Below, piece by piece: positions 51,354 to 57,540 of a stretch of DNA of 64,000 bases; the stretch's first letter is position 1, and every line of letters begins with the position of its first letter. This stretch comes from Dehalococcoidia bacterium. Lineage in GTDB: Bacteria; Chloroflexota; Dehalococcoidia; Plut-88900. The position numbers were made by a program, and so were the translations under genes. Below the pieces are notes generated by a model. It had not been told where the DNA came from. It saw only the letters and a program-made list of their open reading frames with translations, and did no database searches. The stretch spans positions 2,144,001-2,208,000 of the forward strand of contig OZ240215.1 in NCBI GenBank assembly GCA_965197585.1, in the 5' to 3' direction.

Positions 51354-51869
51354 CTACAAATTCACAAACGCCGGACTGGACGCAATCAACGGCACATCTT
51401 GCTGGGACTCGTCCGCAAGCCCGACCCGGTACACCGTTAGCCCGTGCTCTCCGGCTGGAGCGTCGTCCAAAACCCTGAATGTCAGCGTTGCGAGAGTCCC
51501 GGCATCTGTCGGGGCTGAGGTTTCTCCCCTCCGAGCCAGGGCGAAAATTAGCTGTCCAATCTCTTGGTCCGCCGACTCCACTCCCACCAGCGGCGAAGCC
51601 CCGAGCAGTTCACCTGCCGACATCCCCTCGTAAGCGAACACCCGGGTGTCGAAGTTTATGATCACTTCAGCCGCGCTAATTCCCTGACCCTTGGGATCCA
51701 CTCCCACGTCAACCGTGAAGCTCTTTCCCGACTCGGCGTCTATGCTGGACGGCGTAAGGGTGACGATTACCGCGCCGTCATCTCCGCCCCCGCACCCAGA
51801 GACCACGATCAGGACAACCAGCGCTCCGAGTATTGCTGCCGTCAACGATATTTTGGCTATTCTCTTCAT
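51354..51869 (-). CDS. Cohesin-domain lipoprotein
   Basis: Lipobox 'IVVSGC'; 'G.SFTVDV.V...ISAAEV.INFD..VF.Y..M.AG.LL...GTLATLTFRV...A.AG' cohesin pattern. Confidence 0.75.
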   Translation of the reverse strand: MKRIAKISLTAAILGALVVLIVVSGCGGGDDGAVIVTLTPSSIDAESGKSFTVDVGVDPKGQGISAAEVIINFDTRVFAYEGMSAGELLGASPLVGVESADQEIGQLIFALARRGETSAPTDAGTLATLTFRVLDDAPAGEHGLTVYRVGLADESQQDVPLIASSPAFVNL

Positions 51870-51879
51870 ATCGTGTTGC

Positions 51880-53280
51880 TCACGGTGAGGGTAGCTGTGC
51901 ACCGAGGATCGCCAGGTCCAGGTAGTTGACTACGTTGTCATTGTTCAGGTCCGCCGTTGCATCGAAACCCGCCTCTCCGGAAATTGTCCCGTAGGCTTGG
52001 CGCAACTGCACTAAGGCCAGTTCCCCATTTTCAATCTCGATCTCGCCGGTCGAGTCTGGAGAAGGCGTCGCCGTTGGAGCGCCCAGAGGGGCCCGGGTGG
52101 GGATGGGAGTGGGCGTCGTCGAATCGGGGCGGTTGCCTATTCTCTCCATCGACACCGGAGGCACACCTATGCTCTCTCTCCACATGTTGTCGAGAGTAAT
52201 CAGGTCAATTCCATATACCTTCTCCAGCGTGTCCTCGAAATTGAGCTGGCCATCCCGAAACTCCCTGAGTAGTTCGCTCATCTTTGCCGTCCCGAAGGTC
52301 CTTACCATGAAGTCCACAACCTGACGGGAGTGGCCGTAAAATACGATAACGGCATCCGGCTCTCCGGGCCGGTTGGCAAGCTGGACCAAGGGGTAGAGGG
52401 TGTCCGTCCTGACGGCTCTGAGCACCGCCAGATCGTATGAGAAGCCCGGCTCGATGTTGCCGTACTCGGCGAGCCCCTCGTTCAGCCAGTCCGGGACCCG
52501 TTTCCCCGGCCCCTCCGCCGCTTGTGCAATGAGAAGGTGCGTCACTTCATGGGATACGATTCCCTTGATCTGGCTGTCGAACCCGTTTATCAGAAGGACT
52601 CCCTCTTTTCCGTGGGCCTGCCCCTGGGTCACCAGGCCACTGGAGCTGGTCCGGCTGATAAATGGCAGGGCATCCTTCATCTGCACCGGGTTGCTGTACA
52701 TCACTATGTTGACGTTTCGAGTCAGTGGAGTCTCCAGCAGCCGACCCACGTTGCTCAAGGTCTCCACTGAAGTGTCCAGCACCGTTTCGGCCCGCGTCTT
52801 CACGGGCCCGTTGTAGTAGACGGTCACGTTCTCCCGGGACACGGTGTTCCACTCGAAACGGGTGTCGGTGTACACAAATTCGGTAGCGTCCATCTCCGCA
52901 GAGTTGCCGTCCTCGTCCTCCAGAATCCACTTGTATGAGATGACGGCGCCGGGAGGTATATAGGTGCTGCTCCCGCCCCGAGTCCTGAGCGTGAACTCTG
53001 CAGTCGAAGGATTGCCGTCCTCGAACTCTACGGGTTCTACCCTCCTCGAGTCCTGTCCCACTATCAGGAATGTCAGGTTGACGCGGGCCACGGGCCTATC
53101 TGTGGAGAACTCCAGGGAAAAGGTCATGTCATCCGGGAAGTTCGTCTCGACCGACTGCTCCCCGAACTCAACCCAGTGGTTGTCGGCCGAAGCTCCTGCG
53201 CTTAGTCCGGCCCACAACACTCCCGCAGCTATGGTAACCGCCACTGCTATCCAAATATGGCTGTATCTTAGTTGTGCCAT
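51880..53280 (-). CDS. Secreted clan MA (gluzincin) metallopeptidase with C-terminal dockerin-like module
   Basis: 'SHEVTH...PDWLNEGLAEY'; PT linker; 'AYG...ADLNNDNVVNYLDLAIL'. Confidence 0.82.
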   Translation of the reverse strand: MAQLRYSHIWIAVAVTIAAGVLWAGLSAGASADNHWVEFGEQSVETNFPDDMTFSLEFSTDRPVARVNLTFLIVGQDSRRVEPVEFEDGNPSTAEFTLRTRGGSSTYIPPGAVISYKWILEDEDGNSAEMDATEFVYTDTRFEWNTVSRENVTVYYNGPVKTRAETVLDTSVETLSNVGRLLETPLTRNVNIVMYSNPVQMKDALPFISRTSSSGLVTQGQAHGKEGVLLINGFDSQIKGIVSHEVTHLLIAQAAEGPGKRVPDWLNEGLAEYGNIEPGFSYDLAVLRAVRTDTLYPLVQLANRPGEPDAVIVFYGHSRQVVDFMVRTFGTAKMSELLREFRDGQLNFEDTLEKVYGIDLITLDNMWRESIGVPPVSMERIGNRPDSTTPTPIPTRAPLGAPTATPSPDSTGEIEIENGELALVQLRQAYGTISGEAGFDATADLNNDNVVNYLDLAILGAQLPSP

Positions 53281-53301
53281 CGGTCCGTTAACGTCCCGCC
53301 A

Positions 53302-54666
53302 TTAGGGGCTTGCCATGCTTCGTATCAGGGCTATGGCAAGGTTTACGACATCACCCAACAGGCCCGAGTCAACGAATTCCAGGGTGTCCTCGGCGGTGTT
53401 GACCCGGGAAAGGTCGTCTGCGAAGAATAACACCACGGGTATCTCCACCGACTGGAAGACAACGTGGTCACTGATCAGTCCCTCGGGCTCTCGGCCCGGG
53501 GTGATCGTGACTCCAAGATCCGTACCCAGCCGCAAGGCCTCCAGCTGAAGCGCCGGCTCTCCGGCGATGATGGCCCTTTCACCGCTCCCCACATCATCCA
53601 GGTTGATCATCGCAAGCACGCTGCCCGTGTTATCACCTATGACGTTCGAAACGTATCGCTGGCTGCCTATAAGGCCGACCTCCTCCCCGCCGAAGGCCAC
53701 GAATGTCACGTCCACGGCAAGGTCGTCGTCCTTTAGGGCTCGGGCGATGGTGAGCAAGGCTGCCGTCCCCGACGCATTGTCGTTCGCCCCGACCGACTCA
53801 GTGTCAGTATCGTAGTGGGCCCCGATAATGATGGTCGGCGCCCCGGTTATGGAGCCCTTCTTGGTCGCCACTACGTTGCGGCTCTCCCTGTCGTCCGTCT
53901 CCACTTTCACCCGCACCGTCACCTCACCCGACTCCATCATAGCCAAAAGGGCTTGACCGTCTTCCTGGCTTATTGAAAGCGCCGGTATCTGGCCGGCAGT
54001 TTGAAGGGTGCCTGCGAAGTTCTCCGGCTCGCTGTTGTAGATTATGACCGCCGAAGCGCCTGCTTCCCGAGCGTTACTGGCTTTGATTTCAAAGTCGATC
54101 TCTCCCCGCCCGATCAACGCCACGGCCCCGTCCAACCCATCCTCGGGGAAATCTACCGCCCTGCCTAGACCTGCGTGTACCAGTCTCCCTTCCACGTCCC
54201 CGAAACCCGTCCGGTACATAAACAGCGATTCAATAACTTGCTCTTCCTCGCCCGTGACCCTCAGCCAGGGTTCATCATCGCTTATTAGTCTCAGGTCGAA
54301 GCCATTAACTTCTGCCTCGTATCCAAAACTGCTAAGCTCGGCGGCAATGAATTCCGCGGCCGCAAGCTCTCCGTCCGTCGTAGCATTTCGTTCCGGGTAA
54401 TCAGAGACGATGGTTTCCACGTATCCATAGGCGATATCAGCCAACTCAGGCGCGAAGGAAACGGCAGTGGGCACGTTAACGCCCGGGGCGGAGATGGGGG
54501 TGGAGGTAGGAATCGCGATGGTGGGGGTCGGCGTGCCTGTTGTATCAATTGCCTGGGGGGTGAGTGCCTGCGCCTCAGTAGTTGCAGTGGCATCCCCGCC
54601 GCCACCACATGCGGCCGCAACCAGTACTGCCAGGATTGTAGCGGCCAAGAGTTTCAATTTGATCAT
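53302..54666 (-). CDS. M28 aminopeptidase lipoprotein with PA domain
   Basis: 'AAAC' lipobox; PA domain 'VALIGRG..F..KA.NA..AGASAVIIYN'; 'GAHYD', 'GANDNASG', 'GEEVGLIGS', 'INLD', 'SDH'. Confidence 0.92.
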   Translation of the reverse strand: MIKLKLLAATILAVLVAAACGGGGDATATTEAQALTPQAIDTTGTPTPTIAIPTSTPISAPGVNVPTAVSFAPELADIAYGYVETIVSDYPERNATTDGELAAAEFIAAELSSFGYEAEVNGFDLRLISDDEPWLRVTGEEEQVIESLFMYRTGFGDVEGRLVHAGLGRAVDFPEDGLDGAVALIGRGEIDFEIKASNAREAGASAVIIYNSEPENFAGTLQTAGQIPALSISQEDGQALLAMMESGEVTVRVKVETDDRESRNVVATKKGSITGAPTIIIGAHYDTDTESVGANDNASGTAALLTIARALKDDDLAVDVTFVAFGGEEVGLIGSQRYVSNVIGDNTGSVLAMINLDDVGSGERAIIAGEPALQLEALRLGTDLGVTITPGREPEGLISDHVVFQSVEIPVVLFFADDLSRVNTAEDTLEFVDSGLLGDVVNLAIALIRSMASP

Positions 54667-54777
54667 CTAAACCTACGTCCTGTGTTCTCGGTAGACACAG
54701 TGGAGTTTGGGACTAGAGGGGCTCATCAAACAATAACGCACGTAGAGTCATTTAGTTGCGCCCCCTCAGCGTACAAC

Positions 54778-54806
54778 AATGGGAAACTGCGCTGCAGTTT
54801 CCCATT
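54778..54806 (-). terminator. Terminator-like perfect hairpin downstream of the FTR-like gene
   Basis: AATGGGAAACTGC-GCT-GCAGTTTCCCATT, 13-bp stem, 25 nt past the TAG at 54831-54833. Confidence 0.65.
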
Positions 54807-54830
54807 ATTTACCTTGCATAAGTTAGGGAA

Positions 54831-55262
54831 CTATTCCCTCCGAGTTGCCGGCCCCCGAGCCGACTTCTTAGGCGCTCCGGTGTATTTTTCATCCGGGAAC
54901 AGATCCTCACCGGGAGCCCCGCCCTCGCCGGCCACCGTGCTCATCGGCTCCTCGCCCGCTTCCATCTTGCGAAGAAACTCTTCGCTCACGAAGAACATTC
55001 ATATACAGAACCCGTCTCGGGCTATGTCTTCGTGGTGCCTCTCGCAGGGGCAGATCTTCATGCGATCCAGATCCGGATCGCCATCTACGATCATTCAGGG
55101 ACAGTAGCGGTAGCCGAATTTCACCTCGTTCTTGGCCAGCCCCTTCTGCACTTCGTCGACGATCTCCGGGTCGGAGTAGAACTCGTAGGGTCCCTTCTCC
55201 ACGTACTTCTCGGACATCTTCACTGCGCCCTTCAGGGCCTGCTCGAAGGTCTTCTTCTTCAA
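54831..55262 (-). CDS. Ferredoxin-thioredoxin reductase catalytic-subunit homolog with two selenocysteines (TGA 55095-55097 and 54999-55001); 143 aa
   Basis: AGGAGG RBS then TTG; read-through gives 'GLAKNEVKFGYRYCP-U-MIVDGDPDLDRMKICPCERHHEDIARDGFCI-U-MFFVS', matching the FTR CPC/CPC/CxC pattern; two SECIS-like hairpins. Confidence 0.88.
54969..54985 (-). promoter_or_regulatory. SECIS-like hairpin for second TGA
   Basis: GCGAAGA-GTT-TCTTCGC after a 13-nt spacer from TGA. Confidence 0.75.
55062..55081 (-). promoter_or_regulatory. SECIS-like hairpin for first TGA
   Basis: GCGATCCG-GATC-TGGATCGC after a 13-nt spacer from TGA. Confidence 0.75.
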
Positions 55263-55353
55263 CCTCGTTCCTCCTTTGCGCTGGGGCCTATGGTTCAATT
55301 ATACCCCACCGCCCGGCCCATTCCTTCGCATTGTCTGTTAACGCTCATCCTAA

Positions 55354-57540
55354 TCAGGGTTCGCAGATAGACACTTCACTTCCGTCCCGACGCGTTATTT
55401 CATCCAAGGACTCGGGAATGCAGCCGTGTAGATTCGTGTAGCTAATGTCAAGCCTGGATAGCTGCTGCAGATTGCCTATTTGCGGCAAGATTGCCCCCTT
55501 AATACGAGTGTAGGCCAGATCTAGTTCGCGCAATTCCGTAAGGTCGTACAGCTCCGCAGGCAAGGAACCGCTGATACCGGTCCCCCTGAGATCTAGGATT
55601 CTCAACTGTTGTAGTGATCCCAATTCTGGAGGCAATGTTCCTGAGATAGTCGGAGACGACAGATCGAGTGTCTCTAACTGCTTCAGGTTGCCAAGCCCCG
55701 AAGGAATCGATCCACTAATTCGATTGCCGCCCAAACGTAATACTTTAAGGTTGGATAGCATGCCAAGTTCCTTTGGTATCGCCCCTAAAAGGCCATTCCT
55801 GTTTACGTTCAGCTCGACCAGCTCAGACAATTCACTAAGCTCTGTCGGAATATGTCCGTCAAGCTTGTTCGATGACAAGTCCAGATATTCCAGCGCGCTC
55901 AATTCCCCAATCTCCGCAGGGATTGTCCCGCTAAGATCGTGCTCAGGAAGGGACAGCCTGCGAACCCGGAGCGGTAACTTATCGTCTGGGGATTCAGCAT
56001 CCGATGTTTCTGCTGACAGAGGGTCAAGATGGACTCCCTCCCAATCAGATAGTGCCGTTTGCGCATCCCAATTCAACTCGCCGGCACCCGTCAGCTGGTC
56101 TCTGATCCGCAACAGCACCTCGCAATCCCGTACCAGACCAAAGTTGTTTTGTGGATCCTCCACTAGGCTTCCCAGCGAGCAGGAAACCGGACCGGATACA
56201 CCCTCTGCGATTGCGGCCTCTGCAGACAGCAATACCCCATTACGAGAAAGCGCGGTCAACGCACGCTTCCCGCCAGTCTCTATCGTTACCACGTGCAAGC
56301 CGCCCTCCATGCTGGCAAACATTGTCCCGTCAGGTGACCAAGCCCCACAGGAGCTTCCTTCAAATGAGCGCAAGTTAGACCCGTCCGCATTTACTATGAA
56401 TGTTGATCCCGGCAAACCATGTACGGAGAACATTATTTGAGATCCATCCGGTGACCAGCTTGGCCAGCAGAAAGTGTCATATTGCGGCACGTAGTCGAGT
56501 CGGACATTTACAATCTCACTAAATTGCCTCCCGTCCCTATCTACAGTGAACAGCTTAGTCCACCCTTTTTCATAGCTTAGAAAGGCTATGCTTTGTCCAT
56601 CTGGTGTCCATGCTGGTGGGCCTAGGATAGAACCGTAGGTGACTCCATCTGTTCTAGCTTCGAAACCTAATACTCTCTTAGAGGGGGCCCCGTCGGTATT
56701 CGATATGTAGATACCTGGTCGCAGTCTTCGCGTCTGGCTGTAGGTTGAGTCAAATTCTTCTTTGTAGTAATACACTGTTGCCAAATAAGCGATTTCACGA
56801 CTGTCGGGAGACCATGTGAAACCGCCGAAAGCGTATACATCCTCTTTTATGGAGTAGTTTGCTGGTACACCGGGAGCTCTTGTTTCTTCCAGGTCTTCAG
56901 GTGAAGGCGGTACTGCCAGCATCTGGATATCCTTGCCATCTGTACCCATTACGAATAGTCCTGAATCCGCCCCGCCATGTCCTTTGCAAAAGTCGGCGTC
57001 ACGCTTGAAGGCAATCAGTGAACCGTCAGGTGACCATGACGGAGAGGAATCCAAGGCCGTAGAGGGAGTGAGCCTTTTTCTGTCCGCACCATCAAGAGCG
57101 ACTGTTTCGATCTCGTGAAAGTACTTTCCTTCGCCTGCATCTCTGTATGCTACGTAGACGATACGATCTTGCTCCGGAGAGAAATCGAGGGAGCGGACAA
57201 CTAGCGATTTATCATCTAGCATTCGCCTTAGGGTAGTGCCGTCAGGCGAAATTGTGTAAATCTGCGAAACATAAGAATGTCCAGGCAAACGAGCGTTAAA
57301 CACTATCGAACTACCATCAGGTGTCCATTGTGGTGTTGTTTTTGGCCAGGAATAGTCTTTGTCCGTGGGTATCGGTATAGGTGTTGGAGTGGCAAACGCA
57401 CCAGAGGCAAAGGGCCTAAAGGAGCCACAACGGATGCTATTGTTGATGCTGTTTACGCAAAATCCTACTCCAGTGAGCAGGAGTCCCACCGTAGCAAACA
57501 GTACGACCCATTTCTTGTGCTTCAGAATGTATCCACCCAT
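55354..57540 (-). CDS. Membrane-anchored TolB/PD40 propeller plus plant-type leucine-rich-repeat protein
   Basis: Repeated 'P.WSPDG..I.F'; about 7 LRRs 'L.G.IP.ELG.L..L..L.L..N'; cap 'DCEVLL.IRD.L..LNW...SDWEGV'. Confidence 0.88.
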   Translation of the reverse strand: MGGYILKHKKWVVLFATVGLLLTGVGFCVNSINNSIRCGSFRPFASGAFATPTPIPIPTDKDYSWPKTTPQWTPDGSSIVFNARLPGHSYVSQIYTISPDGTTLRRMLDDKSLVVRSLDFSPEQDRIVYVAYRDAGEGKYFHEIETVALDGADRKRLTPSTALDSSPSWSPDGSLIAFKRDADFCKGHGGADSGLFVMGTDGKDIQMLAVPPSPEDLEETRAPGVPANYSIKEDVYAFGGFTWSPDSREIAYLATVYYYKEEFDSTYSQTRRLRPGIYISNTDGAPSKRVLGFEARTDGVTYGSILGPPAWTPDGQSIAFLSYEKGWTKLFTVDRDGRQFSEIVNVRLDYVPQYDTFCWPSWSPDGSQIMFSVHGLPGSTFIVNADGSNLRSFEGSSCGAWSPDGTMFASMEGGLHVVTIETGGKRALTALSRNGVLLSAEAAIAEGVSGPVSCSLGSLVEDPQNNFGLVRDCEVLLRIRDQLTGAGELNWDAQTALSDWEGVHLDPLSAETSDAESPDDKLPLRVRRLSLPEHDLSGTIPAEIGELSALEYLDLSSNKLDGHIPTELSELSELVELNVNRNGLLGAIPKELGMLSNLKVLRLGGNRISGSIPSGLGNLKQLETLDLSSPTISGTLPPELGSLQQLRILDLRGTGISGSLPAELYDLTELRELDLAYTRIKGAILPQIGNLQQLSRLDISYTNLHGCIPESLDEITRRDGSEVSICEP

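Follow-up and report, generated by a model that had tools for sequence, protein, structure and literature searches.

The stretch of DNA analysed here (the window, 64,000 nucleotides of a Dehalococcoidia genome) very probably holds, at positions 54,831 to 55,262 of its minus strand, one gene for an iron-sulfur disulfide reductase of the ferredoxin-thioredoxin reductase (FTR) and ferredoxin-dependent disulfide reductase (FDR) fold, in which both residues of the redox pair are selenocysteine (Sec), with the decoding and chemistry set out below. The double-Sec FTR-like family is already known, as a prediction and as a curated model, and the window gene is an ordinary member of it.

Reading frame, family and fold

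Under translation table 11 one open reading frame at the locus (55,095-55,298, minus strand) terminates with '...GYRYCP*', and a second (54,831-54,998, minus strand) opens with 'MFFVSEEFLRK...' and closes at the TAG at 54,833-54,831. Reading TGA as Sec (U) gives a single, complete frame of 143 residues from a TTG start at 55,262-55,260 to the same TAG, with Sec at codon 56 (55,095-55,097), the third position of the first CPC motif, and at codon 88 (54,999-55,001), the last position of the third motif, C-I-U, the two TGAs lying 96 nt apart. A Shine-Dalgarno-like AAGGAGG can be read from the sequence at 55,270-55,276 on the same strand, 7 nt 5' of the TTG, and AAAGGAGG 5' of the TTG is retained in 10 of 14 distinct orthologous genes. 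The read-through protein carries the motif CPU-x14-CPC-x12-CIU, with the core YCP-U-MIVDGDPDLDRMKI-CPC-ERHHEDIARDGF-CI-U, and a 13-bp hairpin (54,778-54,806) follows the stop. An earlier note on this DNA, made from the letters alone, had described a frame running on from 'YRYCP*' through two TGAs to the TAG, its three motifs, the 96-nt spacing of the SECIS-like elements behind the TGAs, and the hairpin beyond the stop; all of its descriptive sequence statements are confirmed.

A six-frame search of the genome with NF041072, the NCBIfam equivalog model 'FtrB_double_U, FtrB family double-selenoprotein' (cut-off 160 bits), matched the locus at 202 bits with two TGAs inside. The protein itself scored 212.3 bits, positions 1-121 of the 121 in the model falling on residues 2-123, and its in-frame TGAs supply the U of CxU in motif 1 and again in motif 3, as is usual for this family. 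The match to FeThRed_B that the earlier note had proposed as a check was also obtained (PF02943, 74.4 bits against a gathering threshold of 22, residues 13-108); it is the sole domain found in the read-through protein, with no fused rubredoxin or glutaredoxin.

In alignments to solved FTR and FDR chains, U56 coincides with the closing Cys of CPC and U88 with that of CYC or CHC, in agreement with the earlier note's assignment of the TGAs to the redox pair. The other four cysteines of the motifs, Cys54 (codon 55,101-55,103, first residue of motif 1), Cys71 and Cys73 (Cys71-Pro-Cys73 of motif 2, 55,044-55,052) and Cys86 (codon 55,005-55,007, first residue of motif 3), all on the minus strand, are invariant in an alignment of 13 homologues (A1), in which the six Cys/Sec columns are the sole invariant cysteine positions. 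By homology with FTR and its crystal structures, we take these four to be the ligands of a [4Fe-4S] cluster; the earlier claim that four presumed ligands remain Cys holds in these columns. Its reading of the third motif as a CHC whose His has become Ile calls for a shift of emphasis: Ile is present, but CHC belongs to a more distant branch and the nearest relatives, 4TPU and 7PWE, carry CYC, the FDR-type relatives having Tyr, Asp, Arg or Glu at this middle residue.

A sequence search against solved structures returned 7pwe_A (E 2.1e-12) and 4tpu_A (E 3.2e-12), with classical FTR chains (7bzk, 1dj7 and 2pvo among them) at about 3e-4. An AlphaFold2 model built from the 13-sequence alignment has a mean pLDDT of 82.1, with residues 1-100 at 90 or above and the tail, residues 111-143, at 47-64. 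Foldseek against the PDB placed this model first on 7pwe, the glutaredoxin/FDR fusion of Desulfotalea psychrophila (E 1.8e-6, rmsd 1.8 Å, 91 columns), second on 4tpu, the ferredoxin-dependent disulfide reductase of Methanosarcina acetivorans (3.6e-5), and then on classical FTR chains (about 3e-4); the 12 matches listed among ranks 1-13 (all but rank 11) were without exception FDR or FTR chains, with probability 1.00. Because the x14/x12 spacing and the best sequence and fold matches all lead to 4tpu and 7pwe, the protein is placed with the FDR-type members of the FTR superfamily, and its description as an FTR-catalytic-chain homologue, of FDR type rather than plant-type FTR, is supported. The C-terminal tail of some 30-40 residues is of low complexity and low model confidence, and is nevertheless under selection.

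Predicted selenocysteine decoding and the hairpins

The genome holding the window (G000; other genomes are labelled G0xx, loci L0xx and protein-database clusters P00xx) is a single contig of 3.43 Mb, 91.9% complete, and contains the sel machinery for which the earlier note had proposed to look: a tRNA-Sec with anticodon tca at c[3198932,3199030], together with selA (542.7 bits), selB (369.6 bits) and selD (385.4 bits), all above curated cut-offs. The selD gene (G000:C1:3357253-3358176; L014) has one in-frame TGA of its own, and selenophosphate synthetase is therefore itself a selenoprotein in this genome. About 115 nt upstream of the tRNA-Sec and on the same strand lies a thioredoxin gene (3,199,146-3,199,436, minus strand; G000:C1:3198932-3199436, L057), and the two possibly form a trx-selC unit.

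Each TGA is followed by a SECIS-like hairpin. Hairpin 1 (55,062-55,081, minus strand) has a 7-bp stem, GCGATCC/GGATCGC, with the loop GGATCT, 13 nt 3' of TGA 56; hairpin 2 (54,969-54,985, minus strand) has a 7-bp stem, GCGAAGA/TCTTCGC, with the loop GTT, 13 nt 3' of TGA 88. Both stems are perfect and both loops begin with G, much as the earlier note had read them (exactly 13 nt, then a stem starting GCG and a G-initial loop), and a stem-loop with an apical-loop G shortly 3' of each UGA, kept in orthologues, is the arrangement of bacterial selenoproteins. A perfect 7-bp Watson-Crick stem at offset 13 occurs behind 98 of the 95,359 TGA triplets of the genome (0.10%), and at offsets 9-18 behind 561 (0.59%); as the exact geometry is found at 0.10% of triplets, paired hairpins in one gene are beyond chance. 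Folding energies of 60-nt pieces (z -0.6 for hairpin 1, -1.3 for hairpin 2) are unremarkable alone, and a search of 54,700-55,400 at a permissive threshold gave no Rfam family match, rpfG at E 9.8 being at chance level and Rfam being without a usable bacterial SECIS model.

Variation among the 14 distinct genes bears on the hairpins in several ways. The codons of the hairpin 1 stem arms, GGC, GAT and CGC, are one codon each in all 14; Gly and Arg columns outside these arms use 3-5 codons. At stem position 5 of hairpin 1 a C/T change turns a pair into a 1-nt bulge in nine of the genes. Hairpin 2 is identical in 13, and the fourteenth (L030) has SSEFAR for SEEFLR, in other codons, yet again forms a 7-bp hairpin in the same place. 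Of the degenerate columns with an invariant residue, those restricted to one codon make up 4 of 9 within the hairpins and 8 of 48 outside them, an excess that is only suggestive (Fisher p=0.08, from related sequences). A G-D...D-R motif is encoded in part of hairpin 1 and is shared in part by Cys homologues; protein constraint therefore contributes to the conservation of this hairpin.

The TGA codons themselves are found again in contigs from other public runs, aligned to 54,700-55,400 of the window. Both are spanned by DNA contigs (X1 record 3, 54,981-55,136, 0 differences; X3 record 30, 54,981-55,291) and by one contig from an RNA library (X15 record 15, 54,984-55,215), a second such contig covering the first TGA (X16 record 22, 55,034-55,263), although contigs from RNA libraries do not prove transcription. 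No variant at either TGA was seen in the DNA or RNA-library contigs of these runs, and the TGC or TGT for which the earlier note would have had the reads searched did not appear in them. In two DNA runs, the summed contig depth rises from about 40-160 to 1000-1900 over positions 54,964-55,011, which hold CI-TGA and hairpin 2, with loose ends on both sides; this 48-nt stretch would seem to be nearly letter-identical across many diverged relatives in the same communities.

Distribution, selection and Cys/Sec pairing

A search with NF041072 of 41 genomes (G000 and 40 relatives) placed 13 above the cut-off, each with exactly two TGAs inside. The window's own family contributes 12 of these, all of its genomes in the set, and a different family of the class contributes the thirteenth. 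Adding 9 loci from records titled 'MAG: Dehalococcoidia bacterium' brings the number of loci to 22, which represent 14 distinct coding sequences; codons 56 and 88 are TGA in all of them, and none contains a further internal stop. In an even sample of 401 genomes across the phylum, G000 included, the double-Sec form was above the cut-off in none of the 400 others, and single-TGA forms below it (91.5 and 85.4 bits) were present in two genomes of one other family. Within this set of genomes, double Sec is a fixed trait of one Dehalococcoidia family and is rare in the rest of the phylum; database matches at 57-66% identity represent further lineages in metagenomes. The sole double-Sec genome outside the window's family among the 41 (G040) also has a weak Cys-type FTR-like match (29.7 bits, minus strand), divergent from its double-Sec gene and about 250 nt from it (G040:C120:22465-23382; L030).

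Nei-Gojobori dN/dS over all pairs is 0.13 before the first Sec codon, 0.08 between the Sec codons and 0.22 after the second; within the family alone the three values are 0.08, 0.04 and 0.12. The values of 0.08 and 0.22 therefore indicate purifying selection on the protein downstream of each TGA, and the scattered stops and relaxed selection that the earlier note had named as evidence against its reading are absent from the orthologues. Proportions of synonymous differences (pS) are 0.46 between the Sec codons and 0.38 over the first 20 codons after the second, against 0.55 before the first and 0.59 in the rest of the tail, synonymous divergence being lowest in the two segments that bear hairpins.

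Relatives of these genes have Cys at one or both of the Sec columns, the Cys/TGA pairing that had been suggested as a check. The 14 distinct genes are U/U. A U/C state is found in L047:1483-1779 (G087; CPU...CRC, in an x14/x12 branch), a C/U state in L037:1504-1794 (G032; CPC...CHU, in a branch with the classical x16/x8 spacing) and in P0011 and P0012 (CPC...CI, then the end of the called protein), and a C/C state in L032-L036 and in P0013, which has CEC. Judged by their sequences, L037 and L047 are natural half-way forms between Cys/Cys and Sec/Sec. One further relative, L031:1480-1660 (G035, minus strand), keeps the first TGA and hairpin 1, has CSC for CPC, is without the N-terminal part and is unrelated after 'ERHH'; to judge from these letters it looks like a decayed remnant of a double-Sec gene.

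A protein-database search gave 19 proteins at E <=0.001 among 45 candidates, and 17 of them were examined. Five of these end at YCP; the remainder show W at both columns (nine), C/U (two) or C/C (one). Such records bear on two readings in which there is no Sec at all. If the TGAs were genuine stops, one would be looking at a decayed gene or a set of three short ORFs, with a 55-residue N-terminal piece as the only product; this is how table-11 callers present it, ending at YRYCP*, the five database calls ending at YCP agree with them, and L031 of G035, with its CSC and missing N-terminus, resembles the decayed gene that this would imply. It is nevertheless a scarcely credible account of the window gene: none of the 14 distinct genes lacks either TGA or contains any other stop, dN/dS downstream is 0.08 and 0.22, the NF041072 model spans both TGAs, and essential cluster cysteines are located 3' of the first. 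The pseudogene reading was rejected on the retention of the TGAs and the purifying selection downstream of them.

Equally improbable is that TGA is read as Trp (code 4/25), or by near-cognate suppression, so that W or C is inserted instead of Sec. Nine clusters of close homologues (P0002-P0010, 57-66% identity, up to 196 member sequences) do carry W at both Sec columns, as calling under code 4/25 would print, and this W most likely reflects TGA translated under that code by gene callers on short contigs. Against such a reading, TGA is in use as a stop: it ends the upstream gene (55,354-57,540, minus strand), and three of the 14 orthologues (L018, L030 and L046) close with TGA after their two internal ones. 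Moreover, tRNA-Sec(tca) is the only tRNA reading UGA, tRNA-Trp being cca, and Trp would be chemically senseless at two catalytic columns where homologues have Cys. Code 4/25 was rejected on the stops elsewhere and on the cca anticodon of tRNA-Trp.

Proposed chemistry and known systems

With Sec at both positions, the locus would be a single monocistronic gene for a 143-residue cytoplasmic iron-sulfur disulfide reductase of the FTR-catalytic-chain/FDR fold. SelB and Sec-tRNA(Sec) would bind each hairpin in turn, inserting Sec at UGA 56 and at UGA 88; Cys54, Cys71, Cys73 and Cys86 would ligate the [4Fe-4S] cluster, and Sec56 and Sec88, if homology is a guide, would sit next to it, joined as a diselenide in the oxidised state. 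Reduced ferredoxin would pass on two electrons, one at a time, by way of the cluster; following the FTR model, Sec88 would bond a cluster iron in the one-electron intermediate, leaving Sec56 free to attack a substrate disulfide, possibly that of a thioredoxin-fold protein and possibly another, and the enzyme would work without the FTR variable subunit. The template is the FTR mechanism that reportedly comes from the crystal structures of Dai et al. On balance we lean slightly towards a catalytic diselenide in van der Waals contact with the [4Fe-4S] cluster, passing through an Fe-Se one-electron intermediate, with the double-Sec form fixed and lineage-defining in a Dehalococcoidia group. If this is true, use of a diselenide would for the first time be demonstrated in a prokaryotic enzyme, as would selenium-to-cluster chemistry of such a type. 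In FTR itself the redox-active disulfide is formed by two Cys, as the account of these selenoproteins in PMC2398784 has it.

The surroundings of the gene give no clue to electron donor or substrate. The hairpin after the stop lies in the 164-nt spacer to the next same-strand gene and is terminator-like for the plus strand only, its tail being T-poor on the gene's strand, and a scan for sigma-70 promoters returned 0 sites. Same-strand neighbours in 51,354-57,540 are predicted secreted or surface proteins: a 728-aa PD40 beta-propeller and LRR protein, an M28/PA peptidase, a Peptidase_MA_2 protein and a cohesin-domain protein, the M28 peptidase being likewise 3' of the gene in G009 (L018). Elsewhere in the genome there is a TrxB-like flavoprotein, which at 288 bits falls short of the 343-bit cut-off, and the double-Sec enzyme therefore need not be the thioredoxin reductase.

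It is possible, though rather unlikely, that the protein is a real double selenoprotein and yet not a ferredoxin-driven, thioredoxin-reducing diselenide enzyme, acting instead on another disulfide, on an Se/S compound or with a glutaredoxin-like partner. Its nearest relatives of solved structure are two FDRs, one with a glutaredoxin and the other with a rubredoxin fusion, and the physiological substrates of FDRs are unsettled; the third motif is without the His of CHC; the neighbourhood contains no gene for thioredoxin or ferredoxin; and the 91.9% complete genome has 0 matches to the FTR variable subunit (PF02941), for which a Synechococcus control was positive. Set against these points, the active-site geometry is conserved with FTR, and the genome has a canonical thioredoxin (130.5 bits), the gene at 3,199,146-3,199,436 on the minus strand beside the tRNA-Sec.

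Whilst the earlier note could not say whether a double-Sec form had been described, it had, as both the literature and the curated NCBI model NF041072 attest. Zhang & Gladyshev (2008) list two FTR selenoprotein sequences in GOS data, and in the part of that paper dealing with them an FTR homologue whose two Sec stand precisely in place of the redox-active Cys pair is predicted from ocean metagenomes (PMC2398784), in keeping with the note's statement that Sec-containing FTR homologues had been predicted from metagenomes. A table in a 2022 review has the entry 'Ferredoxin-thioredoxin reductase, COG4802, CxU' (PMC9312934), and one in a 2026 review gives NF041072, CxU, with 2 Sec. Little is therefore added as discovery, in view of the 2008 publication, these two review tables and a gene that the NCBI equivalog model names automatically. 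The literature searched, main texts largely from outside the subscription journals, yielded no experimental study or protein-level evidence.

One known system with a comparable pair is SelL, a selenoprotein of eukaryotes whose UxxU motif reportedly forms a diselenide (a description credited to Shchedrina et al., 2007). Like the window protein, it has two Sec in place of a redox Cys pair; unlike it, SelL has a thioredoxin fold with an adjacent UxxU and no Fe-S cluster, and its sequence is unrelated. With the catalytic subunit of classical FTR (FTRB/FtrC; 1DJ7, 2PVO, 7BZK) the window protein has the fold and the six-Cys active-site scheme in common, but classical FTR has CPC-x16-CPC-x8-CHC (seen in 7bzk and L035-L037) where the window protein has x14/x12 and Ile, and it is a heterodimer with a variable subunit, whereas the window's genome gave no PF02941 match. 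Closer in sequence and fold are the FDRs 4TPU (Methanosarcina acetivorans) and 7PWE (Desulfotalea psychrophila), which have the same CPC-x14-CPC-x12-CxC spacing and a third motif without His. In them the redox pair is Cys/Cys, the middle residue of the third motif is Tyr, and a rubredoxin or glutaredoxin domain is fused on; in the window protein the pair is Sec/Sec, the middle residue is Ile, and the chain ends in a 40-residue low-complexity tail without any such domain.

From the family of NF041072 and Zhang & Gladyshev (2008), as far as that paper's treatment of it extends, the window gene differs in nothing essential: it is the same family, with Sec at both redox-active positions and SECIS hairpins behind them. 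What is added to the family record is a whole-genome Dehalococcoidia context with full sel machinery and statistics on selection. The value that is left lies in the FDR-type rather than plant-type assignment, in a candidate diselenide/Fe-S chemistry and in correcting annotation, since default gene callers split the gene or print W for Sec and annotations at this locus in these genomes are therefore wrong. Complete genomes, 14 natural variants and relatives in the U/C, C/U and C/C states, which could serve as natural controls, would together make the design of a biochemical study straightforward.
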